Assembly (NCBI GenBank): GCA_018263175.1
Contig: JADFDB010000002.1
Span: forward strand, 1 to 52,142
Source: Spirochaetota bacterium
Lineage (GTDB): Bacteria > Spirochaetota > UBA4802 > UBA5368
DNA: 52,142 bases
Reading direction: 5' to 3'
Positions 5,782 to 45,865 of the stretch are shown here, one piece after another. Every line of letters starts with the position of its first letter. The stretch's first letter is position 1. The notes under the pieces were generated by a model. That model was not told where the DNA came from, made no database searches, and saw only the letters and a list, made by a program, of their open reading frames with translations. A program made the translations under genes and the position numbers.

Positions 5782-8034
5782 CTACACCGTCGTCAGGGGC
5801 CGTTCGCCGAGCCGCCGTACGACCTCGCCGGGGATTTCGGTGATCCGTTCGCAGCCGGTGAGAATCATCGCCTGCTCGAGCTCGCGTTTGAGCCCGTTAA
5901 GATAGAAGCTGACCCCGCGCGAACCCATCCCGACCGCGGCGATCGCCACCGGGCGGCCGATGAGCACGTAGTCCGCGCCCAGGGCCAGCGCCTTGAGAAC
6001 GTCCACGCCGGTGCGGAAGCCCCCGTCGATCATGATGCGGATGCGTCCGCGGACCTCGCGTACGATCTCCTCGATGACGTCCATCGTGCCGGCCATCTCG
6101 TCGAGTACGCGCCCCCCGTGGTTGGAGATGACGATGCCGTGTGCCCCCGACTCGACCGCGAGGACCGCGTCGCGCACCGTCATGATCCCCTTCAGAATAA
6201 ATGGAGCGCGGGTGGAGCCGATGAGCTCCTTGAGATCCGACGGGCTCTTGGGGCCGACCGCCTGATTTTTCATCGTCATGGTCTTGAAAACGACGGCATC
6301 GATGTCCATTCCCACGGCGACTGCGTTGACCCGTTCAGCGGCGTCGATCCTCAGCATGATTTCCCTGTTGTCGGCCCTGGGCTTGAAAATGGGGACGCCG
6401 GCGCCCTGGGCCTCCGCGAGGGCCTGCAGGCCGATCTTGTATTTGTCCGGTGTGGCGCCGTCGCCGACGAAGGCGATGGTGCCGGCCTCCATGCAGCCCT
6501 GGACGACCGCGCGGTTGTATTCGAGCTCGTCCATGGCGCCGCCCATGTTGGTGACGCTCCCCGTAATCGGGGCCGCCATCACGGGCAGTGTGAGCGGTGT
6601 CCCGAAAAAGGACGTGGAGGTGTCCGGACTCGTGACGGCGTGTATGATTCTCGTGTTGATCTTATACCCCTGGAAGGCCTCGCTGTTGCGCCGGAACGAA
6701 GCGCCGGTCCCGGCACCGCCCATGCCGGGGACCCCCGTGGGGCAGTCCCGCCCGTCGCAGGTCTTGCAGGCGTAGCAGGACTTTTTGAAGCGCTCGCGGG
6801 CGGCCACGCGGATGACCTCCATGGAGAGTTCGGCCTCCTCAAAGACCTCTATGGACAACACGTCGTGACAGCGCCGCACCGCCTCCTCCGCTTCTACGAG
6901 CGTGCCGGCGACGGCTATGATGTGTCCTGATTTTTCCACGTTGGAACGCGGCTCGAGTACGCGGTCGCCGGGTTTGACGTTTATGAAGATTTCGACGATC
7001 CCCGGGATTTTCAGCGCTTCCTCGATGCCGTTCACGCGGCGAACGATGCCCGGCCGGGTGATGATCGCGCGTTCGATCGCCACGCGATGGTGCAGCGGTT
7101 CGAGGTTCCCCGGCTCCTGCCCGAGCGCGATCTCGATCGCGGTGCGGATGAGGTCGACGCCGCTCGAGAGCGGATAGGTATAGGCGGACATGAAGCCGCC
7201 GGACAGCCGCGCGGCGAGCTCCCCGATCATCGGTCCGTGAGGGGTGAGCTTGATGTCGCCCTTCGCGCAGCCGTTGTCGATCCCGAGGGCGCGAATGCCC
7301 TTTTTCATGACTTCACAGGCGGCATGCTGCAGATCTTCAGAAAGCTGTGAGGGCATGGTATGGCCCGTTTCGACGAAGTAGGGCGCGCGTTCGATTATCC
7401 TGTCGGCGACCCCGGTGATGCTGATCTCTCCTTTGTACACGACCGCGTCGATGGAGAGTTCGGGCCCGTCCATGAATTCCTCGATGATGAGCTCGCCGCT
7501 CGGCGAGGCCGCTTTGGCGAACTTAAAGGCGTCGGCGATCTGCGTACGGTTGTCGATGCGCATTACGCCGCGCGCGCCCATGTTGTCGGTAGGCTTGAGC
7601 ACGAGCGGGAACGAGAGTAGCTTGCAGGCCTTTTTGGCGTCCGAGAGGGACCAGACGGGAAGAAAATTGGGACAGGGCACGTTATGGGCCGTAAAGCGCA
7701 TGCGCATTTTGAGCTTGTTGGTGGACGCCTCGGCATCGTCGAACTTGATGCCGGGAAGCCCGAGAGCGTTGGCCACCGCCGCCACCGTCATCGAGGCGTC
7801 GGTCCCCACGGTGAGGACCGCGTGTATGGGCGTAATCTCGTTCTGGGTCTTCGCCGCGCGGACCGAGCCCTCGATATCGCGCGTGGACATAACGATCGGG
7901 ATATCCGCGTATTTCATCCCGAGGGCGTTGGGATTGTAGTCGGTTACGACGACCTGGTGGCCCATTTTTTTCGCGGCCTGGACGGCCGGTGTCTGTAAAA
8001 GGCCTCCGCCGATTATCATGATGGTCTTTTTCAT
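5782..8034 (-). CDS. fusion protein: N-terminal ATP-grasp ligase domain plus C-terminal FMN-dependent alpha-hydroxyacid oxidase/dehydrogenase-like domain
   Basis: The N-terminal roughly 400 aa has an ATP-grasp layout (IIGGG.., FPLVLKPTDNMGARGV, IIEEFMDGPELSID). A Cys-rich linker CYACKTCDGRDC follows. The C-terminal part carries GIVISNHGGR and DGGFRTGVDVLKALALGADYVLIGRP, hallmarks of the glycolate-oxidase/LldD family. The ORF is uninterrupted over 750 codons. Confidence 0.85.
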   Translation of the reverse strand: MKKTIMIIGGGLLQTPAVQAAKKMGHQVVVTDYNPNALGMKYADIPIVMSTRDIEGSVRAAKTQNEITPIHAVLTVGTDASMTVAAVANALGLPGIKFDDAEASTNKLKMRMRFTAHNVPCPNFLPVWSLSDAKKACKLLSFPLVLKPTDNMGARGVMRIDNRTQIADAFKFAKAASPSGELIIEEFMDGPELSIDAVVYKGEISITGVADRIIERAPYFVETGHTMPSQLSEDLQHAACEVMKKGIRALGIDNGCAKGDIKLTPHGPMIGELAARLSGGFMSAYTYPLSSGVDLIRTAIEIALGQEPGNLEPLHHRVAIERAIITRPGIVRRVNGIEEALKIPGIVEIFINVKPGDRVLEPRSNVEKSGHIIAVAGTLVEAEEAVRRCHDVLSIEVFEEAELSMEVIRVAARERFKKSCYACKTCDGRDCPTGVPGMGGAGTGASFRRNSEAFQGYKINTRIIHAVTSPDTSTSFFGTPLTLPVMAAPITGSVTNMGGAMDELEYNRAVVQGCMEAGTIAFVGDGATPDKYKIGLQALAEAQGAGVPIFKPRADNREIMLRIDAAERVNAVAVGMDIDAVVFKTMTMKNQAVGPKSPSDLKELIGSTRAPFILKGIMTVRDAVLAVESGAHGIVISNHGGRVLDEMAGTMDVIEEIVREVRGRIRIMIDGGFRTGVDVLKALALGADYVLIGRPVAIAAVGMGSRGVSFYLNGLKRELEQAMILTGCERITEIPGEVVRRLGERPLTTV

Positions 8035-30025: not shown

Positions 30026-30340
30026 CTACTGCAGTTTGCGCTTGAGCAGCTCCGCCGGCTGGACCCCAATCATCCTCTCGACTTCCTTTCCGCGCCTGAA
30101 GAGGATGAGGGTCGGGATGGAGCTGATGCCTAAGCGCTGGGCGGTTCCCGGGTTCTTGTCGGTATTGAGTTTTACTATCCTTGCGCCCCCGTTCAGCTCT
30201 TTGGCCAGGCCCTCGAGTATAGGCGTCTGCATGCGGCAGGGACCGCACCAGGGAGCCCAGAAATCGACGAGCACGGTTCCTTCGCCGGTGAGGACTTCGC
30301 TGCTAAAATTTCCATCGGTAACTTCGGTCACTATGGACAT
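30026..30340 (-). CDS. trxA: thioredoxin
   Basis: WAPWCGPC active site, 104 aa, GGAGG SD. Confidence 0.95.
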   Translation of the reverse strand: MSIVTEVTDGNFSSEVLTGEGTVLVDFWAPWCGPCRMQTPILEGLAKELNGGARIVKLNTDKNPGTAQRLGISSIPTLILFRRGKEVERMIGVQPAELLKRKLQ

Positions 30341-30372
30341 ATCAATTCCTCCATGGGTTGTAAATGATATAG

Positions 30373-30401
30373 AATTTAATAAAATACTTAATAATCGTCA
30401 A
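30373..30401 (-). promoter_or_regulatory. sigma70-like promoter candidate for trxA
   Basis: Minus strand: TTGACG (30401..30396), 17-nt spacer, TAAATT (30378..30373), in an AT-rich gap. Confidence 0.45.
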
Positions 30402-30496
30402 CATTATTTTCCATACTCATTACACTTTTAAGTAGCACTATTGGATAACCGGAGAACAACAAGTCTGATGTTCAGGGGAGAATGTAAACTCCCGAA

Positions 30497-30973
30497 TCAG
30501 GCGTTGAGCTGAAATCCGGGGGCCTCTCCACCTTCGAGGGAGTCGGGCAGAGATTCGATAAAGTCCCGGATCGCGTCGCGCACCCGTCGGTAATGGATGA
30601 GCGCCTCCTCCTCGCTCTTCGCATCCATCGCAAGCAGCGGCGGGTCCTCAAAGCCGCGGTGCATGATCTTGGTCTTTCCCGGAAAGAAGGGGCATTGTTC
30701 ATGCGCATGCCCGCAGACCGTAATCACGTAATCGAACGACAGGTGCGTCACGCTTTCAATACTCTTTGACGTGTGTGCAGAGATGTCAATCCCCACCTCG
30801 ACCATCACGGAAACCGCGCGCGGGTCAAGCCCCTTGGGCGCCGTCCCTGCCGAATGGGCCTCTATACGGTCGCCCCTCAGCCTCCTCGCCCAGCCCTCGG
30901 CCATCTGGCTGCGAGAGGAGTTGCCGGTGCAGAGGAAGAGTATTTTCAGTTTTTCCGGTTTCATGTATTTCAC
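30497..30973 (-). CDS. arsC: arsenate reductase, LMW-PTPase / thioredoxin-coupled type
   Basis: P-loop LCTGNSSRSQMAEG (CX5R) and downstream VCGHAHEQC cysteines. The start is either GTG 30973 or ATG 30964. Confidence 0.9.
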   Translation of the reverse strand: MKYMKPEKLKILFLCTGNSSRSQMAEGWARRLRGDRIEAHSAGTAPKGLDPRAVSVMVEVGIDISAHTSKSIESVTHLSFDYVITVCGHAHEQCPFFPGKTKIMHRGFEDPPLLAMDAKSEEEALIHYRRVRDAIRDFIESLPDSLEGGEAPGFQLNA

Positions 30974-31015
30974 TCGTTTGGGATTTTTTCTATTTTAAAT
31001 AAGGCACCAGGGTAT

Positions 31016-32068
31016 TTATTCCGTATTGTTGAAGAAGCGCCGCTTGAAGAAAAGAGCCACGCTCACAAGCGAGATGAGCACCGGGACTTCAACCAGCGGT
31101 CCGATGACGGCGGCGAAGGCCACGCCCGAGTGAATGCCGTAAACAGCGACCGATACCGCGATGGCGAGCTCGAAGTTGTTGCTGGCAGCGGTGAACGATA
31201 GTGTGGCGGAGATCGGATAGGTCGCGCCGATTTTTTTACTCAGAAAAAAGCTCACCAGGAACATTGCCACGAAGTAAATAACCAGCGGAATTGCGATGTG
31301 TACCACATCCATCGGGATTTTGACAATATACTCGCCCTTCAGGCTGAACATCACGACGATCGTGAACAGAAGCGCGATGAGCGTAACGGGGCTTATTCTT
31401 GGGATGAATTTTTGCTCATACCACTCCCTGGACTTTAGCCTGAGGATGGTGAAGCGCGTGATGATGCCCGCGATGAACGGAATGCCGAGATAGATGAACA
31501 CGCTTTCGGCGATCTGGCCGATCGTGATGTCCACAATACTGCCCTGAAGGCCGAACAGCGGCGGCAATACCGTAATGAAAAACCACGCGTACACGCTGAA
31601 AAAGAGCACCTGGAATACGCTGTTGAACGCGACCAGTCCCGCAGCGTATTCGGCGTCCCCGTGGGCCAAGTCATTCCAGACGATCACCATGGCGATGCAG
31701 CGCGCCAGGCCGATCATGATGAGTCCTGCCATGTACTCGGGATATCCGGAGAGGAAGGAGATCGCGAGGAAAAACATGAGCACCGGGCCGATGATCCAGT
31801 TCTGGATGAGCGAGAGGAGGAGCACCCGCCAGTTTTTAAATACATCCCCAAGATCCTCGTATTTCACCTTGGCGAGCGGTGGATACATCATGAGGATGAG
31901 ACCGATCGCTATCGGTATGTTTGTGGTCCCGGCCTGAAATCGGTTCCAGAAGCGGGCCGTTTCCGGAACGAAATATCCCAGGCCGACTCCGGCGGCCATC
32001 GCAGCGAAGATCCAGAGCGTCAGGTAGCGGTCCAGGAAGGAAAGCTTTTTCATGAGACCGTTTTCCAT
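31016..32068 (-). CDS. acr3: arsenite efflux transporter, ACR3 family
   Basis: N-terminal [13 protein letters not shown] signature, about 10 TM segments, GGAGG SD before ATG 32068. Confidence 0.9.
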
Positions 32069-32141
32069 AATTTCCTCCGGTCATGAGTTATTTCAACAGA
32101 TAAATCCCCGCACGGCCTTGGCAACAGATTGTCGTTTTAGT

Positions 32142-32846
32142 TCAGATAACCGTGTACAGAAGATACACCCCTCCGAGAATAACCAGTACGCCGCATATCC
32201 TTTTAAGGGTGAGTACACTCTTCGACCGCTCGCTCCAGTCGAGATATCGCTGCACCGCACCGATAAAGGTTCCCGCAAGCACGATGATAGAACAGTGGCC
32301 CATGGCGTAGGCCAGAACAAGTGAGACGGCGAAAACGAGTTGTGCCGACGCAAGGCTGAAGACCACACCGAGCATGGGTGCCATGTAGGCGAAGGTGCAG
32401 GGGCCGAGTGCAACGCCGAAGACGAGCCCCAGAATGAGCGCGGCGATTGGGCCACGTCCGGTGAACCGGGGGTTGACTCCGTTCTGCGGAAAGGGTAGTG
32501 GAAGAATTTCGAGCAGATGGAGCCCGATGATGAAGAATATCGCCGCAACGAAATAATTTCCCCAGGGCCCCAGGTCTCCCAGCATCCTCCCTGCAAGACC
32601 CGTGAGAAGCCCGACGAGTCCGATGGTGACGAGGATGCCCATCGCGAAAAGGAGCGCGAGCGCAAACGCCCGGGCCACGCCGACCCGTCCCTGGCCGTCG
32701 ATGAATCCGACGATGAGCGGAATGCTTGCGAGGTGGCATGGAGAGAGAAGAATGCTCGCCACCCCCCAGAGAAAGGCCCCGGAAAGTGCGATTCCGGGGG
32801 AGCCGCCGAGCGTACCCGAGAGCCAGGTGAAGAACTCGAGCAGCAT
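32142..32846 (-). CDS. ccdA: cytochrome c biogenesis / thiol-disulfide transporter, CcdA (DsbD_2) family
   Basis: Six-TM protein with the two conserved Cys-containing helices (LLSPCHL, ALGPCTF). Start overlaps the upstream stop by 1 nt. Confidence 0.8.
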   Translation of the reverse strand: MLLEFFTWLSGTLGGSPGIALSGAFLWGVASILLSPCHLASIPLIVGFIDGQGRVGVARAFALALLFAMGILVTIGLVGLLTGLAGRMLGDLGPWGNYFVAAIFFIIGLHLLEILPLPFPQNGVNPRFTGRGPIAALILGLVFGVALGPCTFAYMAPMLGVVFSLASAQLVFAVSLVLAYAMGHCSIIVLAGTFIGAVQRYLDWSERSKSVLTLKRICGVLVILGGVYLLYTVI

Positions 32847-33361
32847 CAGCGGACCCCTCGCGTCTTTAAAACCCTGATGATCTCCTTTTTTGGGAAGAAG
32901 CCCTCGTGACGGAAATATTCATTTCCGTCCCTGTCGAGAAACACCTGGGTCGGGATGATGCGTATGCCGTACTTTGTACCGTATGGCCTTCCTTCCGGCG
33001 TCCAGACATCGTAAAAAAGGACCTTCACTTGATCCCTATAATGTTCCTCGACCTCCCTAACGATAGGCTGCATCATTTTACAGGGTACACAGTTAAGCGA
33101 GCCGATCTCAATAAAGGTTACGAGTATTTCGTTGCCAGCGGCCGATGCGGATACTGCCGTCCCTTCGTCCGGATCGCGCGATCTTTCAGGGGATATTTCG
33201 CTCGAGGGGGCTTCTGCTTTGCCACACCCGAAGACGCTCCCCACAGCGGAGAGAGCAAACTCACCGATAGAGCAGGAACATTCTCCTTTGAGTAAATTCC
33301 CTCCCAAGGCGAGAACGAATGCAATAAAAACAGGCAAGACGATCTTGAGCCATCTGTTCAT
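32846..33361 (-). CDS. membrane-anchored thioredoxin-fold protein (TlpA/ResA-like)
   Basis: N-terminal TM anchor, CVPC redox motif in a thioredoxin fold, AGGAG SD. Confidence 0.8.
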   Translation of the reverse strand: MNRWLKIVLPVFIAFVLALGGNLLKGECSCSIGEFALSAVGSVFGCGKAEAPSSEISPERSRDPDEGTAVSASAAGNEILVTFIEIGSLNCVPCKMMQPIVREVEEHYRDQVKVLFYDVWTPEGRPYGTKYGIRIIPTQVFLDRDGNEYFRHEGFFPKKEIIRVLKTRGVR

Positions 33362-33432
33362 CTCGTTATCTCCTGACGATTATAATGGTATACCATTCGA
33401 GTGCGGGTGCATGTTGCCAGGTAGGCCGTGCT

Positions 33433-33837
33433 TCAGCCGCAGCACCCGCAACCAGCGGTCACGTTTCCCGGTACTGCGGTCTGGTTTTTGCCGTGGATCG
33501 TTTCGTCAATGCGCGTGACATTCTCTCCGTTCGCCGGGCTCGAGGCCTTTCCCAGCCTCATCTCAGTGAGCACATATGAAAGCGGGAGGATGCCGATGCA
33601 CTCAAAATTCTCGCGCGCGCAGGCGGTTGAGCAGCCGTCGATCGTGATCTCGGTGTTGGCCGCCTTAGCCGTCTGTACGTAGCCTGAAAGAGTGGCTCCG
33701 ATGGCGGCAAGACAGCTTATTTTCGCGAAACTCTCGTCGTGCAGTTTCCGCGCGACCCTGTCTGCGATCTTCCCTACGTCGACGGCACCTCAACAGGCGT
33801 TTACCTTCCGTGTTCCTCCGCAGCAGCATTCGACCAT
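33433..33837 (-). CDS. DGC-domain (putative metal-binding) protein with an in-frame TGA at 33790..33792; candidate selenoprotein
   Basis: My own minus-strand translation: MVECCCGGTRKVNAC-[TGA]-GAVDVGKIADRVARKLHDESFAKISCLAAIGATLSGYVQTAKAANTEITIDGCSTACARENFECIGILPLSYVLTEMRLGKASSPANGENVTRIDETIHGKNQTAVPGNVTAGCGCCG*. There are 118 stop-free codons after the TGA with no usable start near it. The DGC motif is present. This fills an otherwise empty 500-bp gap inside an operon. Confidence 0.6.
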
Positions 33838-33861
33838 AACATGTTCTCGCTGGTTGAAATA

Positions 33862-34095
33862 TTACTCTTTAATTATTTTCTTAATTTCGTCGATGGATGG
33901 CACTTTACCGACAAACTTTACCTCCCCGTTCACCACGAGGGCGGGCGTGATCATTACGCCATAGTTCATGATGTCTTTTATTTCCTTGACCTTGGTGATT
34001 TCTGCGTCGATTTCGAGTTCCGCCACCGCCTTGCGGGTAATCTCCTCGAGCTTGATACACTTGGCACAGCCGGTCCCCAGTATTTCGATTTTCAT
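33862..34095 (-). CDS. small thioredoxin-fold protein (redox-active disulfide protein 2 type)
   Basis: 77 aa with a GCAKC motif (MKIEILGTGCAKC). This type is commonly paired with the ArsP-like permease. GGAGG SD. ATGA overlap with the upstream gene. Confidence 0.85.
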   Translation of the reverse strand: MKIEILGTGCAKCIKLEEITRKAVAELEIDAEITKVKEIKDIMNYGVMITPALVVNGEVKFVGKVPSIDEIKKIIKE

Positions 34096-35375
34096 GGTGA
34101 TCCTCCTTTTGTTTTAGAGCGTATATATTCGATGAGCGCGCGCAGAGTCCGCGCGTCGAGATCAACCGTGTCGAGCATCCGGTTGTTGACGAACAGGGTC
34201 GGTGTTCCGTCAACCATCAGGCGCTCGCCCTCGAAACGGTCTTCCCGTACGCGTTCGAGGGACTCGGAAGAGCTCATGCACGATTCGAAGATTGCCGTGT
34301 CGAGATCGAGGCGCGCGGCCTGGCTTCGCAGCGATCCGATGTCGTGCTCGACGCCGGCCTCGCCGTCAAGGTACAGGGCGGCGGACATCGCGCCGTATTT
34401 CCCCTGACGAGCCGCGCAGACCCCGGCGCGGGCGGCCAGGCAGGAGCTCGCCTCTCTGCGATGATCCATCGGGTCGCGGCACTGCTCGCCAAGCGGAAAA
34501 TTCTTATAGTACACCACGAGTTCGCCGGGCCTTTCTTTTAAGAGATTTTTCAGGCTTTTGTTCATACGCGTGCAGCTTGAGCAGTTGAAATCGCTGTAAA
34601 CGACGATGCGTACCGGCGCACCGGGCGAACCATCATACGGCACGCCGCCGAGTTCGATGCGCGAGTCGAGCACGGCCTCGTAGCGGGCGATGAGGCGGGA
34701 CACCCGCTCATCGCCGCCGAAGCCGGACATCGATTCAACCAGGCGTTCCCGCGCCAAGAGGCCGATGCCGGTCCCCAGCATGATGAGCAGGATGATGACG
34801 AGGGAGTGCAGGAGCAGGCGGGCCCGGCCGAAGGACGCGAGCGATCGGCGCATGCCGGCGGCGCGCGCTCCCGGATCCGTCCGCCGGGCGTACCGCAGGG
34901 CGATCACCGAGGAGAGGAGGATGAGCGCCGCGGCGGCGTAGCTTGCGGTACAGAGCGGGCAGAAGGCCCCGATGAAAAAGGTCGAGACAAGGAACAATAC
35001 GATACTGACGATGCAGGCGGCGGATGAAAGCGCGGCGGAAAGGCGAAGCGGCAACAGGCCGCCCGCCGTATTCCGCCTGAAGGCGGAGACAAAGAGAAAC
35101 GCGAGATAGCCATACAAAGCAAAGCCGAAAAGGGCGATCGGCACGTCGCCGACATGCGGGACGCCGCGAATAGCCGCAAACGCGCTCTTCGCAACAGTGC
35201 GGCAGGCATTTACGCCGCCCCTCGTGGTGCAGAGCGCGTCGGTCGCGCCGATGGAGACGCCGAAGTATTCGAGGATCAGTGCCGCGCTGATAAGTGCCCC
35301 GGCGATCGAGGTGGCGGCGCCGGCAATTATCATGGCCTTCCAAATCCTGGTGTCGGTATGCGTGTTTACCATCAT
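34092..35375 (-). CDS. vitamin K epoxide reductase (VKOR)-family membrane domain fused to a DsbA-like thioredoxin domain
   Basis: VKOR loop cysteines CTTRGGVNAC and CPLC in a TM helix. The C-terminal thioredoxin fold carries FNCSSC. Confidence 0.8.
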   Translation of the reverse strand: MMVNTHTDTRIWKAMIIAGAATSIAGALISAALILEYFGVSIGATDALCTTRGGVNACRTVAKSAFAAIRGVPHVGDVPIALFGFALYGYLAFLFVSAFRRNTAGGLLPLRLSAALSSAACIVSIVLFLVSTFFIGAFCPLCTASYAAAALILLSSVIALRYARRTDPGARAAGMRRSLASFGRARLLLHSLVIILLIMLGTGIGLLARERLVESMSGFGGDERVSRLIARYEAVLDSRIELGGVPYDGSPGAPVRIVVYSDFNCSSCTRMNKSLKNLLKERPGELVVYYKNFPLGEQCRDPMDHRREASSCLAARAGVCAARQGKYGAMSAALYLDGEAGVEHDIGSLRSQAARLDLDTAIFESCMSSSESLERVREDRFEGERLMVDGTPTLFVNNRMLDTVDLDARTLRALIEYIRSKTKGGSP

Positions 35376-35411
35376 CGACCCTCAAATAAAATTTGCAGAC
35401 GGGAACCGGAA

Positions 35412-36710
35412 CTAAAATAACGCCCCGAAGATCATTCCGCAGACGGTCGCCATTACGACGACAAGGCCCACGAAGACCACGGTCTTCTGCGTTCCGAGGA
35501 CGCTTCGTATTACGAGCATATTGGGAAGCGAAAGCGCCGGTCCGGCGAGGAGGAGTGCGAGCGCAGGCCCCTTGCCCATGCCGCTTCCGATAAGCCCCTG
35601 CACGATCGGGACCTCGGTCAGCGTCGCGAAGTACATAAAGGCACCGGCGACCGAAGCGAACAGGTTCGACCACAGCGAGTTGCCGCCGACGGCGAGCTCA
35701 ACCCATTCATTGGGGATAAGACCCTCGTGTCCCGGGCGGCCGAGCAGCGCGCCCGCGATGAGCACGCCGAAGAGCAATAGCGGCAGTATCTGCTTCGCGA
35801 AGTCCCAGGTGGCGGAGAACCAGGGGCCCGTCTCTCCCTTGTCGGTGCTCGTTATAATAGAGAGCCCGATTACGCCGGCGCTGAACGCGATGACGGGTTC
35901 GCGGTGAAACAGCAGCGCGAGCACCGCCGCGGGGATGCCGGCGAGCGCCACCTTCCACCATTTGAGATCGAACCACGACGCGAGCATCAGCGCGAGCGCG
36001 CCGGAAGCGGCCGCGGTAATCACCCATTTATAGGTAAAGATGGCGTGCCATACGCCGGTCTCCTCGACGGGCTTTCCCCAGTTCGCGAAGACGAGAATGG
36101 CGACCATGGTGAAGAAATACAGCGCATTTTTCCAGAGGGCCCGGGAAACCCCGGCCTCGGGCATGTTCACCATGGAGTTGGCCTTTTCCCGTTCCTCCCT
36201 GCGATAGATAAGGTGCATGACCAGACCGATAACGACGCTGAAAAGAACCGCCCCAACCGCCCTGGCCACGCCGATTTCGAGGCCGAGTACGCGCGCGGTG
36301 AGGATGATGGCGAGCACGTTGATGGCGGGGCCGGAATAGAGAAAGGCCGTCGCGGGGCCGAGCCCGGCGCCCATGCGATAGATGCCGGAGAAAAGCGGCA
36401 GCACCGTGCACGAGCAGACCGCGAGGATGGTGCCCGACACCGACGCCACACCATAGGCAAGCGCCTTGTTGGCCGCCGGTCCGAGGTACTTCATTACCGA
36501 GGCCTGGGAGACGAAGACGGCGATCGCTCCGGCAATAAAAAAGGCAGGGACCAGGCACAGGAGTACGTGTTCCTGCGCGTACCATTTTGTCAGATAGAAC
36601 GCTTCCATTATCGCGTTGTCGAAGCGCTGAGTGCCGACCGGCAGGTAAAAAGCGGCCAGAAACACCGCGATAATCCAGAAAAACGGTTTCCATTCGGTTT
36701 TCCAGTTCAT
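35412..36710 (-). CDS. predicted permease, PF03773/ArsP-like family
   Basis: Polytopic membrane protein with the family-typical vicinal Cys motif AVCSCTVLP. Lies next to arsR and the small thioredoxin-like gene. ATG 36710 is preceded by GGAGGG. Confidence 0.8.
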   Translation of the reverse strand: MNWKTEWKPFFWIIAVFLAAFYLPVGTQRFDNAIMEAFYLTKWYAQEHVLLCLVPAFFIAGAIAVFVSQASVMKYLGPAANKALAYGVASVSGTILAVCSCTVLPLFSGIYRMGAGLGPATAFLYSGPAINVLAIILTARVLGLEIGVARAVGAVLFSVVIGLVMHLIYRREEREKANSMVNMPEAGVSRALWKNALYFFTMVAILVFANWGKPVEETGVWHAIFTYKWVITAAASGALALMLASWFDLKWWKVALAGIPAAVLALLFHREPVIAFSAGVIGLSIITSTDKGETGPWFSATWDFAKQILPLLLFGVLIAGALLGRPGHEGLIPNEWVELAVGGNSLWSNLFASVAGAFMYFATLTEVPIVQGLIGSGMGKGPALALLLAGPALSLPNMLVIRSVLGTQKTVVFVGLVVVMATVCGMIFGALF

Positions 36711-36766
36711 GTCAAAGCCCTCCATGGTATGCACGGGATAGAGTCATCATCACATCCCGTGCGCGA

Positions 36767-37102
36767 TCAGCGAACCAGGCGCATCTGGTCGCGGGCGACG
36801 GCCTGCATGACCGACTCGACACAGCCGAAGAAGTCCAGTATGCAGCTCACGCGAAGGCGGTAATAGACCTGGTTGCCGCGTTTTTCGTCGAGGACGATAC
36901 CGGCGTTGCGGAGCACCGAGAGGTGCTTGGATACGGTGGAGGTGTCGGCACCGATGATCTCGGTGAGCTCGCAGACGCAGCGCTCCTCCTTCGCGAGCTC
37001 ATCGATGATGATGAGGCGGCTCGGGTGTGCCATCGCCTTTATTATCCTGGCCCGCGCCTCGTAAAGGGCGAGGCGGTCATTATCGCTCTTCATCGCAGTC
37101 AT
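36767..37102 (-). CDS. arsR: ArsR/SmtB-family metalloregulator
   Basis: HTH ELTEIIGADTSTVSKHLSVLRNAGIV with the CVC As(III)-binding motif (ERCVCEL). The start is ATG 37102 or 37093. The longer ORF to 37165 would run through the putative operator. Confidence 0.85.
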   Translation of the reverse strand: MTAMKSDNDRLALYEARARIIKAMAHPSRLIIIDELAKEERCVCELTEIIGADTSTVSKHLSVLRNAGIVLDEKRGNQVYYRLRVSCILDFFGCVESVMQAVARDQMRLVR

Positions 37103-38282: not shown

Positions 38283-38515
38283 TCTCCTCCCGACGCGCGC
38301 ATCGAGAACCTGCCCCGGACATCAGGTTCTCGCGTCATTATTAAAGAGACATAATGCTTCCCTTGTAGCGGGAAAGCTTTTTCATGTCAAGGCTAATTGG
38401 ATGTCGGGCCGTATTTTACTCATATTTTTTTATAGTGTGCGCGTGCGCCCGCGTGCACTGAAAATTTCTTGAATGCTTTCCGCCCGTGGTTTATGGTCGG
38501 GGACGGAGGCGGCGG

Positions 38516-40858
38516 ATGAACGTGCTGGAATCGAAAGTGGAGTCGCTGGTGCTTCAGAGCGGCGGCATGGAGCTCATGTATGGGCCGCGCGAGAAGACCG
38601 GTGTACTCGTGGTCGAGAGCTTCCCGGCGCTCGGGCGGCTGGCGGCGCTGCGCTTTATCGAGTGGGTCCAGGACAATCCCGGCGGCGTGATAGCGCTCCC
38701 GACCGGTAAGACACCCGAGTATTTCATCAAGTGGACAAAGCATTTTCTCGCGACGTGGAACGAGGAAGCGACGGCGCGCGCGCTCGAGGCGGGGGGCGTC
38801 GATCCGGCCCGCGTCCCGGACCTTCAAAGCCTCCATTTTGTCCAGATCGACGAATTTTACCCGATCGAACCCGCCCATCACAACAGCTTCCATCATTACG
38901 TAAGCACCTACTATATCGACGGTTTCGGCCTCGATCCAGGGAAGGCGCTGCTTATCGACTGCTCGCGCATCGGCCTTCCCGCCAGCCGGGGGCTCGAAAC
39001 GGTATGGCCGGAGTTGACGGTAGACCTGTCGCTTCGTTTGAGGCATGCGAAGAGCGCCACGGAACGGCTGCAGAAAGACGTGCTGCTGCGGATCGATCAG
39101 TGGTGCCATGATTACGAGGAGCGCATACGCTCCTTGGGCGGCATCGGCTTTTTCATGGGCGGGATCGGCCCGGATGGCCATATCGCCTTCAACATGAGGG
39201 GCTCGGACCACCATTCCACCACGCGCCTCACCGAGACGAATTACGAGACCCAGGCGGCCTCCGCGACCGACCTCGGCGGTATCGAGGTGGCGAAGAAGCG
39301 CCTCGTCATCACCATGGGTCTTGCCACCATCACGGCCAATCGGGACTGCGTCGCCGTGATCATGGTCGCCGGCGAGGCCAGGGCGGCCGTGGTACGCGAC
39401 GCGGTGGAGGCGGAGACGGGGCTTCTCCATCCGGCCACGGCGCTTCGCGCTCTGCCCGCGGCGAGGCTCTATGTGACCGGCGGCGCGGCGGCGCTCCTGG
39501 AAGAGAGACGATTCAGGGCCTTCGTCGCGAAGAAGGAGCCCGGACCGGCCGATATAGAACGCGTGGTGCTCGACCTCTCCCTGCGCCTCGGCAAGCCGGT
39601 TGCCGAGCTGGACGGCGCCGATTTCGCGGCCGACCGCTTCGGTGCGCTCCTGCCGTCGAAGACCGCCACGGAGCCCCGGGAGATCGCGGGCGTCGTTGCA
39701 GAGCGCCTGCGGGTGAAAATCGACGAGGGTGCCCGTACGGCCTCGGGTATGCGCTTTCTCCACACGGCGCCGCACCACGACGACATCATCCTGGGCTATC
39801 TGCCCTATGCCGTACGCCATATCCGCGACGCGTCGAACCGGCACGATTTCGCGTACATGACCTCCGGCTTCAACGCCGTCACCAACCGCCACGCGCTCTC
39901 ACTCGTGCGCACGCTCTGCGGCCTTCTGTCCGAGGGGCGCTTCGATGCCCTTATACGAGAGGGCTATTTCAGCCCCGACAACGTTTACGGCCGGCGGCGT
40001 GACGTGTGGCAGTACCTCGACGGCGTGGCGGAGGACCAGCGCGGGACGCGCGACGAGGGGGCCGCGCGGCGCATGCTCCGCAACCTCATCGAGATTTACG
40101 AGGACGGAGACATCGAGAACCTGCGTCACCGCATCAACGAACTGGTCAACTATTTCGAGACGCAGTATCCCGGCAAGAAGGACCTGCCCTACATACAGAA
40201 GTTCAAGGGCATGATCCGCGAGTGGGAATCGGACTGCAAATGGGGCTATCTCGGCTTCGACAGCGCCTCGATCCATCACCTGCGTCTCGGCTTTTATCAG
40301 GGCGAGCTCTTTACCGAGGAGCCGCTCGAAGAGCGCGACGCGCTTCCGGTGCTCCGGCTCCTGCGCGAGGTGCGGCCCGACGTGGTGACCGTGGCCTTCG
40401 ATCCGGAGGGGAGCGGGCCCGACACCCATTACAAGGTGCTGCAGGCGCTTTCGGCGGCGCTCCGGCTCTATGAAGCGGAGAGCGGCCGGACGGATCTCGA
40501 GGTGATCGGCTATCGAAACGTCTGGTATCGCTTCCACCCCTCCGAGGCGGACGTCTTCGTTCCCGTCTCGCTCAATATGTTCGCGGTGCTCCGGAACACC
40601 TTCGAAAACGCCTTCGTCTCGCAGGCCGACGCGTCGTTTCCGAGCTATGAGCACGAAGGCACCTTCGCCGAGCTCGCCCAGCGCATCCAGGTGGAGCAGT
40701 ACCGCATGGTAAAGACCTGTCTGGGGCGGAGCTACTTCTATGAACATACGAGTCCGCTGCTCCGCGCCACGCGGGGATTCGTCTTTTTACGGCGCATGCC
40801 GCTTGCCGAGTTCTATGCCTCAGCGCGCGCGATACGGCGCACGGCCGAGGAGAAGTAG
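38516..40858 (+). CDS. fusion: glucosamine-6-phosphate deaminase/isomerase (NagB)-like N-domain plus LmbE/PIG-L-type deacetylase-like domain
   Basis: ALPTGKTPEYF and GIGPDGHIAFN (NagB family), then HTAPHHDDIILG (PIG-L/LmbE motif). ATG 38516 is preceded by GGAGG. Confidence 0.85.
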   Translation: MNVLESKVESLVLQSGGMELMYGPREKTGVLVVESFPALGRLAALRFIEWVQDNPGGVIALPTGKTPEYFIKWTKHFLATWNEEATARALEAGGVDPARVPDLQSLHFVQIDEFYPIEPAHHNSFHHYVSTYYIDGFGLDPGKALLIDCSRIGLPASRGLETVWPELTVDLSLRLRHAKSATERLQKDVLLRIDQWCHDYEERIRSLGGIGFFMGGIGPDGHIAFNMRGSDHHSTTRLTETNYETQAASATDLGGIEVAKKRLVITMGLATITANRDCVAVIMVAGEARAAVVRDAVEAETGLLHPATALRALPAARLYVTGGAAALLEERRFRAFVAKKEPGPADIERVVLDLSLRLGKPVAELDGADFAADRFGALLPSKTATEPREIAGVVAERLRVKIDEGARTASGMRFLHTAPHHDDIILGYLPYAVRHIRDASNRHDFAYMTSGFNAVTNRHALSLVRTLCGLLSEGRFDALIREGYFSPDNVYGRRRDVWQYLDGVAEDQRGTRDEGAARRMLRNLIEIYEDGDIENLRHRINELVNYFETQYPGKKDLPYIQKFKGMIREWESDCKWGYLGFDSASIHHLRLGFYQGELFTEEPLEERDALPVLRLLREVRPDVVTVAFDPEGSGPDTHYKVLQALSAALRLYEAESGRTDLEVIGYRNVWYRFHPSEADVFVPVSLNMFAVLRNTFENAFVSQADASFPSYEHEGTFAELAQRIQVEQYRMVKTCLGRSYFYEHTSPLLRATRGFVFLRRMPLAEFYASARAIRRTAEEK

Positions 40859-44266: not shown

Positions 44267-45142
44267 ATGAAGCTCGATTCATCATTTGTGGGAACCCCCC
44301 TGAGGGAATACGGGACCGCCGTAAGCTGGCGCAGCACGATGAATTACGCGGCGGCGATCGACGACGAAAACCCGCTGTATTTCGACGACGAGGGAGGCAG
44401 GGCGGTCATCGCGCCGCCGATGTTTGCGGTGGCGCTGACCTGGCCTATCTCGGAGCGCATCTGGGAGTTTATCGAGGACAAAAATTTCCCCGTGGATATC
44501 ATCAAGACCCAGGTGCACTACACCGAGCATCTGGCCTTTCACCGTCCGGTGCGTCCGGGGGACGAGCTGACGATCAGGGGACGGGTGGCGGCCATCATGC
44601 CGCACCGCGCCGGTACGGTCACCGTCATCCGCTTCGACGCGCTCGACCGCGAAGGGCTGCCGGTCTTTACCGAGCACATAGGGGCGATGATGCGCGGTGT
44701 CGAGTGTGTTGGAGAAGGCCGCGGCGGGGAGGACATCCCGCTCGTGCCCTCCCATGGGAACGACACGCCCGCGCGATGGGAGCGCATTGTACGGATCGAC
44801 CGAATGCGCCCGTTCGTCTATGACGGCTGTACGAACATCGTTTTCCCCATTCATACCTCGGTGGGTTTTGCGCGTATGGTCGGGCTTCCGGACATCATAC
44901 TCCAGGGCACGGCGACGCTCGCCTACGCCGCGCGCGAGATGGCGGATCGCGAGGCAGGCGGTGATTCCCGGAAAATAAAGGAGCTCGCGTGCCGCTTTAC
45001 CGGCATGGTGGTCCCGCCGGGAGACATCCGCGTGCGGCTTACGGACAGGCGCGAACGCGGCGACGGCGCCGACCTCTTCTTCGAGGTGCATGGAGACGGG
45101 GGTCGTGTGCTCTCGAACGGCTATGCGCGCGTCGCCGGCTGA
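44267..45142 (+). CDS. MaoC-like double-hotdog (de)hydratase
   Basis: Two hotdog-fold halves (NPLYFDDE.. N-half; PIHTSVGFARMVGLPDIILQG C-half). Lies 7 nt downstream of the synthetase gene. Confidence 0.8.
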   Translation: MKLDSSFVGTPLREYGTAVSWRSTMNYAAAIDDENPLYFDDEGGRAVIAPPMFAVALTWPISERIWEFIEDKNFPVDIIKTQVHYTEHLAFHRPVRPGDELTIRGRVAAIMPHRAGTVTVIRFDALDREGLPVFTEHIGAMMRGVECVGEGRGGEDIPLVPSHGNDTPARWERIVRIDRMRPFVYDGCTNIVFPIHTSVGFARMVGLPDIILQGTATLAYAAREMADREAGGDSRKIKELACRFTGMVVPPGDIRVRLTDRRERGDGADLFFEVHGDGGRVLSNGYARVAG

Positions 45143-45214
45143 ACCATACGAAAAAGTTCGCGCGGGCCCAAAAGAGGGTTGAGACTTTCGGCGGGAATAC
45201 GGATAGTGCGCCTC

Positions 45215-45865
45215 ATGAAAAGCCCTGTGCGAAAAAAAACGTCGATGCCCCGGCCCGCCCCGGCCGCGGCGGCCTTCCCCGAGAAGCTCAAGCAGCGGCT
45301 CTATCCGGTGGTGCTCGGGCTTTTCGCCGAAAACGACTTCCACCGGGTCAACATCCGCGAGATCTATAAAAAATCCGGCATCAGCCCCAGCACCATCTAC
45401 CGCTATTTCCCCTCCAAGGAGGACCTTCTGTTTGCCATCCTCGACGAAAAGATCGGAGAGATCGGTGCGCTGGTTCGGGAGCATATCAAGGGCATCGAGA
45501 GCGCGCGGGAGGTCCTGAGAAAGATCTTCTGGGTTACGATGGATTATTACGATCGCAATCCCGGAGTGGCGGTCACCGCGTTCATCACCGTGCCCATGCG
45601 TGCCTGGATGAAGGAGCGCTCCTACCGGAGGGAGGACGCCTCGGCCATTCTCGCGGAGGTTGTGCGGCGGGCGCGGGAGCGGGGAGAGATCGATCCGTCC
45701 CTGCGTACCGCACAGATCCTCGATCAGTACTACATGCACTGTTACCGGCAGATACACCTGTGGTATTTCAACGGCATGACGACAAAGCTCGTCGATCGTA
45801 TCCCGATTTTTTTCGATACGCTCTGGAAAACCCTCAGCCCGGCGTCATCGCCGGGGAAGGGTTGA
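45215..45865 (+). CDS. TetR/AcrR-family transcriptional regulator
   Basis: HTH NIREIYKKSGISPSTIYRYFPSKEDL. The ORF was trimmed from TTG 45179 to ATG 45215. Confidence 0.85.
   Translation: MKSPVRKKTSMPRPAPAAAAFPEKLKQRLYPVVLGLFAENDFHRVNIREIYKKSGISPSTIYRYFPSKEDLLFAILDEKIGEIGALVREHIKGIESAREVLRKIFWVTMDYYDRNPGVAVTAFITVPMRAWMKERSYRREDASAILAEVVRRARERGEIDPSLRTAQILDQYYMHCYRQIHLWYFNGMTTKLVDRIPIFFDTLWKTLSPASSPGKG

Follow-up and report, generated by a model that had tools for sequence, protein, structure and literature searches.

The window, by which we mean the whole 52,142-nucleotide stretch of DNA analyzed here, probably contains a recently inactivated gene of the DGC family: codon 16, formerly a serine codon, would have become an opal stop and the ribosome-binding site would have been weakened, with the surrounding arsenic and thiol-redox operon otherwise intact. 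The remnant lies in an interval of exactly 500 bp without a called gene, between the genes for a 171-amino-acid thioredoxin-like protein and a 77-amino-acid Trx_3 protein, and this interval is the sole unexplained gap in the gene map of the window. A preliminary description of the same DNA had pointed to an ORF-less gap of 500 bp in a co-directional operon, which the gene map confirms. The features concerned are:

33433 to 33837, minus strand: remnant of a DGC-domain (PF08859) gene, recognized by translation, the Pfam DGC match, identity to orthologues and synteny with the relative L092
33790 to 33792, minus strand: in-frame TGA at codon 16, just after the invariant Cys15, in place of a Ser codon
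33846 to 33851, minus strand: degraded Shine-Dalgarno site AGCGAG, where the ten closest orthologues have AGGAG/GGAG at equal distance
30026 to 37093, minus strand: co-directional host operon of the remnant, from Pfam/NCBIfam matches and the gene map
33862 to 34095, minus strand: upstream neighbor, an intact MTH895/ArsE-type small thioredoxin (Trx_3; Pfam PF13192, 2e-29; NCBIfam TIGR00412, 111 bits)
32846 to 33361, minus strand: downstream neighbor, an intact 171-amino-acid thioredoxin-like (TlpA-like) protein with a good Shine-Dalgarno site (AGGAG)

On the minus strand, the ATG at 33837 opens a frame that reads MVECCCGGTRKVNAC, meets the TGA at 33790-33792 and then continues for 118 open codons to a second TGA at 33433-33435, giving 134 codons plus the terminal TGA; the frame, its internal stop and its continuation are thus all present in translation as first described. 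For the Pfam profile search the internal TGA was translated as Cys, and the read-through product matches the DGC profile (PF08859) with E=1.4e-18 and 67.3 bits against a cut-off of 27 bits, over residues 12-106 and hence across the TGA, which bears out the DGC identity proposed earlier. All four conserved Cys of the family are present, namely C15, C42, C69 (in the central D-G-C motif, ITIDGC) and C73, and all four are invariant in the alignment of homologous proteins. The frame is 64-70% identical to its orthologues; NCBIfam holds no model for the protein. The frame in the gap is a genuine gene, far beyond what chance would produce. It is the orthologue of an intact 134-amino-acid DGC gene found in relatives at the equivalent place in the operon, and it is a member of the DGC family in all respects but integrity, the coding sequence of the full domain being interrupted by the TGA at codon 16. 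Two plus-strand ORFs (33428-33682 and 33692-33964) are antisense to the conserved domain and were taken as spurious.

The operon begins with ArsR (to 37093), followed by an ArsP_1 permease, a VKOR-DsbA fusion, Trx_3, the DGC remnant, the thioredoxin-like protein, CcdA/DsbD_TM, ACR3, ArsC (LMWP type) and a thioredoxin, after which come IleRS and then LspA. Pfam and NCBIfam matches thereby confirm the arsenic and thiol-redox neighborhood that had been noticed from the sequence. In L092, a relative from another metagenome, the same order is kept from an ATP-grasp gene through CcdA, with an intact 134-amino-acid DGC gene at the matching position. As observations on the setting, the operon joins ArsR, ArsP, ACR3 and ArsC to two envelope thiol pathways, an oxidizing one (VKOR-DsbA) and a reducing one (CcdA and the TlpA-like protein), and the block of VKOR-DsbA, Trx_3, DGC, thioredoxin-like protein and CcdA is retained in L092 (3120-8688), which is approximately 65% identical. 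Beside the ATP-grasp gene, on the upstream side of the operon and transcribed divergently from it, the window encodes a protein of approximately 780-790 amino acids with no Pfam match (38486-40858, plus strand), and such a protein occupies the same position in L092 (1-1718). Farther away, the longest ORF at 44282-45757 (minus strand, 491 amino acids) has no Pfam match either; it is probably spurious, the public contig_66 record described below calling a MaoC dehydratase and a TetR on the plus strand there.

Homologues share the N-terminal segment that precedes the TGA: among 29 homologous proteins with 41-73% identity the common sequence is MAECCSGGTRMIYAC-S-GAADVGEIADRVARKL, and similarity extends along both flanks of the stop, with MxECCxGGT..YAC upstream and GAxDVGxIADRVARKL downstream. 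Conservation of these 15 codons ahead of the stop identifies the ATG at 33837 as the true start, and the TGA therefore breaks a conserved gene. The preliminary description had proposed this comparison, holding that homologues starting downstream of the TGA would undo its reading, and no such downstream start is what the homologues have. A start beyond the stop was also rejected within the window, since the nearest ATG, GTG or TTG lies 72 codons past the internal TGA, in agreement with the earlier remark that no plausible start follows closely. With no start for 72 codons, it is predicted that no DGC domain can be made from the remnant. Some public gene calls in the family are themselves short: those for the DGC homologues P0128 and P0158 (L093 38-404; L094 2917-3321) begin approximately 20-28 codons late, with the true Cys-rich N-terminal segment and a CSG motif in frame upstream of the called start. 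Both had been candidates for hidden TGA-truncated homologues, and both were rejected, the in-frame CSG identifying them as mis-called starts.

The lesion is real and common to at least two strains. The nearest public record, contig_66 of ENA ERZ25039527 (774,648 bp), is a related but different sequence: over the left 21 kb (window 1-21284; L091) identity is 98.6% and there are 18 gaps, and over the right 20 kb (window 23862-44095; L090) identity is 99.93%, with 14 substitutions of which seven are synonymous. The 405-bp DGC gene, the TGA and the altered Shine-Dalgarno site included, is identical in the two, and because the TGA recurs unchanged in this diverged second assembly, a sequencing error does not account for it. 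The preliminary description had allowed for such an error at 33790..33792. On that account the real codon would be TCA or TGC and the gene intact; the long-read-style appearance of the source assembly ("contig_66", 775 kb) and the disruption of two of 80 relatives from metagenome-assembled genomes, possibly through errors, could be cited for it. Against it stand the agreement of the two diverged assemblies, a Logan assembly made separately from run ERR12035938, in which the 500-bp gap likewise carries no gene call, and the absence of any intact protein with more than 71% identity among 5.8 billion clusters, and we regard an artifact as highly unlikely. The divergence from contig_66 is itself uneven, the ars-operon region being far closer than the left 21 kb, a pattern suggestive of recombination or a sweep across the ars/redox region in recent times.

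In the proposed course of events, the DGC orthologue of this species would be a small Cys-rich alpha/beta protein accompanying ArsR, ArsP and ArsE (Trx_3) in arsenic-type operons. Codon 16, which encodes Ser in orthologues, has changed to the opal TGA, likely by way of TCG, TCA and TGA, and translation from the ATG at 33837 is predicted to end after 15 residues. As a second, independent lesion the ribosome-binding site is damaged, from AGGAG to AGCGAG. In the window the site reads cAGCGAGaacatgttATG (33851-33846), as though AGGAG had gained one base, whereas in each of the ten closest orthologues the ATG is preceded, at a distance of 6-9 nt, by AGGAG, GGAG or GGAGG. Predicted pairing with the anti-Shine-Dalgarno sequence is -3.6 kcal/mol for the window DGC gene, compared with -5.7 to -11.6 kcal/mol for most genes of its operon and a median of -8.7 kcal/mol for 80 homologous loci, only two of which are as weak. 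The replacements E23K and G94R may add to this picture of inactivation: among the 21 columns conserved at 90% or more, the window departs at these two, and in the number of such deviations it reaches or exceeds the family's 95th percentile. A further replacement, Y13N, lies near the stop.

An early stop within a conserved domain whose orthologues are intact at the same locus, further signs of relaxed constraint (the Shine-Dalgarno site, E23K and G94R) and a lesion present in two diverged assemblies are thus found together, although overall divergence is not accelerated. The DGC frame of the window is 69% identical to its in-group, within which identity is 84%; the corresponding values are 66% and 78% for the thioredoxin-like protein, 82% and 89% for CcdA, and 81% and 95% for Trx_3, so that comparison of percent identities gives no clear excess of change in DGC over the neighboring genes. 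Two properties of the frame speak against a pseudogene here, since it is fully open apart from the TGA and its divergence is proportionate to that of its neighbors. Because the rest of the frame is open and its divergence is in line with the neighbors, the inactivation would be recent, and because the other operon genes are intact with their own ribosome-binding sites, the arsenic and thiol-redox functions presumably persist without the DGC protein. There is precedent for such disruption in two of the 80 relatives, the remaining 78 being intact: the frame of L012 (about 6001-6345) is cut by a stop at GYV*TAKG, and that of L063 (about 6001-6368) is shifted after approximately 30 codons. These could be pseudogenes or assembly errors.

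The codon that relatives carry at the TGA column bears on the proposal, made in the preliminary description, that the gene encodes a selenoprotein. Were UGA-16 decoded as selenocysteine, the DGC domain would have a Cys15-Sec16 pair (CU) where it putatively binds a metal or metalloid. We consider this improbable, even though conservation is strong on either side of the in-frame TGA, the open reading frame is otherwise intact and the TGA is kept in two strains, an allele shared in this way also counting against a pseudogene. Among the 29 homologous proteins the column holds Ser in 26, Ala in three and Cys in none, and it is Ser or Ala at all 80 of the genome loci examined, which come from species-representative genomes, mostly Spirochaetota/Leptospirales together with Smithella/Syntrophales metagenome-assembled genomes. 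The codons at the 77 loci found by motif match are TCC (32), TCA (21), TCG (14), TCT (2), AGC (1), GCC (6) and GCT (1), and the other three of the 80 are Ser by inspection; all five closest relatives have TCG. Among 1.84 billion cluster representatives searched, 1,387 clusters belong to the DGC family, and in 154 motif-bearing family proteins the column is S in 136, A in 14, C in three and G in one (Ser 88%, Ala 9%, Cys approximately 2%). At the C-x-G position of the preliminary description the relatives thus nearly always have Ser, not Cys, and the Ser of close orthologues weighs against selenocysteine. Smithella and Syntrophales form a group rich in selenoproteins, and yet the relatives from their metagenome-assembled genomes all keep Ser or Ala.

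Cys at this column nevertheless appears, from the sequences recovered, to be a rare but real alternative. A column-specific pattern, TGY-TGH-GGN..., scanned over 241 million metagenome records returned seven loci, every one with TGC (FSCCGSADVGE... or FACCGAADVGE...). This CC subclade (L083-L089; e.g. L083 2039-2422) has F[SA]CCG[SA]ADVGE at the beta1-alpha1 loop instead of Cys-Ser and is without the C-terminal GCGCCG tail, and one CC variant is located in an operon of the order ArsR-ArsP-Trx_3-DGC-x-DsbD. The occurrence of CC in the ArsR-ArsP-Trx_3-DGC operon type favors selenocysteine and weighs against a pseudogene, as does the placement of the TGA directly beside the invariant Cys15 in a column with approximately 2% Cys. 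A further TGA at the column was found neither in the 80 genome loci, nor in the column-specific metagenome scan, nor among truncated database proteins; because these collections gave no second example, the TGA of the window would be a singleton at DGC codon 16. It is the practice of NCBI curators to require at least 10 TGA examples at one site before a selenoprotein family is accepted, against which independent members of the DGC family offer no recurrence. The DGC family goes unmentioned in the selenoprotein surveys deep-Sep, BSepDB and Haft and Gwadz, which also counts against selenocysteine.

The position of the residue is suggestive. In the AlphaFold model of P0001, a 71% identical homologue (pLDDT 82), the protein has a small alpha/beta fold in which Cys15-Ser16 end strand beta1 (10-14), ahead of helix alpha1 (19-34); C42 comes after strand 39-40, C69 after strand 62-67, and C73 stands at the start of the following helix. 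The TGA would accordingly fall in the beta1-alpha1 loop, beside the invariant Cys15 and with the other conserved Cys at strand ends, and on the model residue 16 is plausibly at a putative metal site, which is in favor of selenocysteine. A sequence search of the PDB gave no significant match, and Foldseek with the AlphaFold model found no significant relative beyond a generic flavodoxin/Rossmann-like alpha/beta fold. The placement of the stop beside an invariant Cys is striking, yet it is no demonstration of function.

The RNA downstream of the UGA has no structure specific to the TGA-bearing sequence. Rfam gives no match for the whole window at the gathering threshold, and none at E<=10 for 33400-33900 (a local 501 nt), so the covariance-type search near the TGA that had been suggested earlier yields nothing in its favor. 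Minimum free energies of the 76-nt and 48-nt regions past the UGA correspond to z = -0.6 and +0.8 against dinucleotide shuffles. In a ranking by structure together with 49 Ser- or Ala-encoding homologues, the downstream 63 nt of the window come 39th of 50 (z = +0.06, median -0.57) and are thus less structured than in homologues that encode Ser. We defined SECIS-like hairpins by an apical loop of 3-14 nt with G as its first or second base, located 16-37 nt from the UGA, which is the bSECISearch geometry; the best such hairpin of the window (-10.6 kcal/mol) ranks 55th of 81, the median being -13.2. The Ser-encoding L001 has a hairpin of -21 kcal/mol at the equivalent place, and the window substitutions GAG to AAG and GCC to GCA weaken the stem seen there; since a Ser-encoding sequence folds the stronger hairpin at the same site, such structure is not specific to the TGA. 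Two hairpins that had been drawn by hand in the preliminary description take part in no structure better than the shuffles: the first consists of 3 bp, a 2x2 internal loop, 2 bp and a 10-nt loop, and the second has an apical AAA loop approximately 42 nt from the UGA, which is beyond the usual SECIS spacing. Selenocysteine insertion thus lacks its expected stem-loop here, with the reservation that SECIS prediction is imperfect: SECIS servers fail on genuine selenoproteins (Haft and Gwadz 2022, bioRxiv 10.1101/2022.07.06.499078), a point that favors the selenocysteine reading, and because they miss genuine cases the null result weighs against selenocysteine without being decisive.

No sel genes and no tRNA of any kind, tRNA-Sec included, were found in approximately 60 kb (the window and 8.5 kb past its right end) of the 775-kb contig, too small a part of the genome to inform either way. 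The degraded ribosome-binding site would be unexpected for a gene under selection, and with the Ser column, the singleton TGA and the lack of a SECIS-like structure it turns the evidence away from the selenoprotein candidate of the preliminary description and toward the pseudogene that the same description had held in reserve, which is the better explanation on these four grounds. A reassigned code, with TGA read as Trp or Gly, was rejected because no codon ends ordinary genes of the window more often than TGA, and because the DGC gene itself closes with a TGA just where the conserved GCGCCG C-terminus ends. Among bacterial stop codons UGA is generally the leakiest, and near-cognate read-through (e.g. 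by Trp or Cys) of the frame, intact downstream of the stop, could in principle supply a little full-length DGC protein with partial function. We think this unlikely, as a specific read-through signal is absent, the ribosome-binding site is weakened too, and Trp in a Ser position next to a ligand Cys would probably be disruptive.

Taken as a pseudogene, the DGC remnant is an ordinary finding that matters little. The lineage would have lost an accessory DGC protein and kept the remaining ars/thiol-redox operon, which suggests that DGC is dispensable there. It also carries a caution for selenoprotein hunting, in that a TGA beside a Cys in a redox operon is insufficient, and candidates need checks on the residue in orthologues, the recurrence of the TGA, the ribosome-binding site and the downstream RNA structure. 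Were selenocysteine to prove true, this would be the first DGC-domain selenoprotein and a new selenoprotein family, one that originated where a Ser codon had stood, in an ars/thiol-redox operon of a single spirochaete-like lineage. The CU-motif theme known from HgcA, Sao and MerT would then reach into arsenic handling, and there would be a first hint of chemistry for the uncharacterized DGC domain, namely the binding of a soft metal or metalloid at Cys15 and residue 16.

Among known systems, the closest setting is the ArsR-ArsP-ArsE-DGC module described in Pseudodesulfovibrio mercurii ND132 (DND132_2311-2314). With the DGC proteins of such ars-type operons (PF08859, annotated as "putative zinc-binding protein"), the window frame shares the domain (67 bits) and the four conserved Cys, and with ND132-type ArsR-ArsP-ArsE(Trx_3)-DGC operons it shares the neighbors ArsR, ArsP_1 permease and Trx_3. 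What sets the window copy apart from the DGC genes of those operons is the opal stop at its codon 16, together with the degradation of its Shine-Dalgarno site.

A second comparison is with selenoproteins that carry CU motifs and have CC in their non-Sec members, that is, HgcA (PCUGP), SaoL, SaoB, SaoC and a MerT-like family (Haft and Gwadz 2022); CU(G) motifs are documented in metal-handling selenoproteins of anaerobes, those of spirochetes included. If decoded with selenocysteine, the DGC protein of the window would read A-C-U-G, with Cys-Sec and then Gly as in HgcA, and a CC counterpart exists in some DGC homologues, as it does in the CU/CC-motif families. The resemblance of C-U-G to the motifs of HgcA, SaoL and SaoB, with the MerT-like family as a parallel, is in favor of selenocysteine and against a pseudogene. 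The window operon is also like the SAO locus in having an ArsP-family exporter and a Trx_3-type thioredoxin, although its permease scores 107 bits against the SaoE cut-off of 325 and its Trx_3 19 bits against the SaoT cut-off of 65. For the HgcA, Sao and MerT-like families the independent TGA sites number in the tens, the residue regularly found instead is Cys, and Sec machinery is proven in the genomes. For the DGC gene of the window, by contrast, the TGA occurs in a single species, the regular alternative is Ser, nothing resembling a SECIS signal is seen and the ribosome-binding site is damaged.

From ordinary pseudogenes with a single nonsense mutation the window gene does not differ in substance. 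These too have an early stop in a conserved domain with orthologues intact at the same locus, no downstream start, an extra lesion of regulation and some conserved residues replaced. The sole oddity of the DGC remnant in this company is that its stop lies directly beside an invariant Cys.
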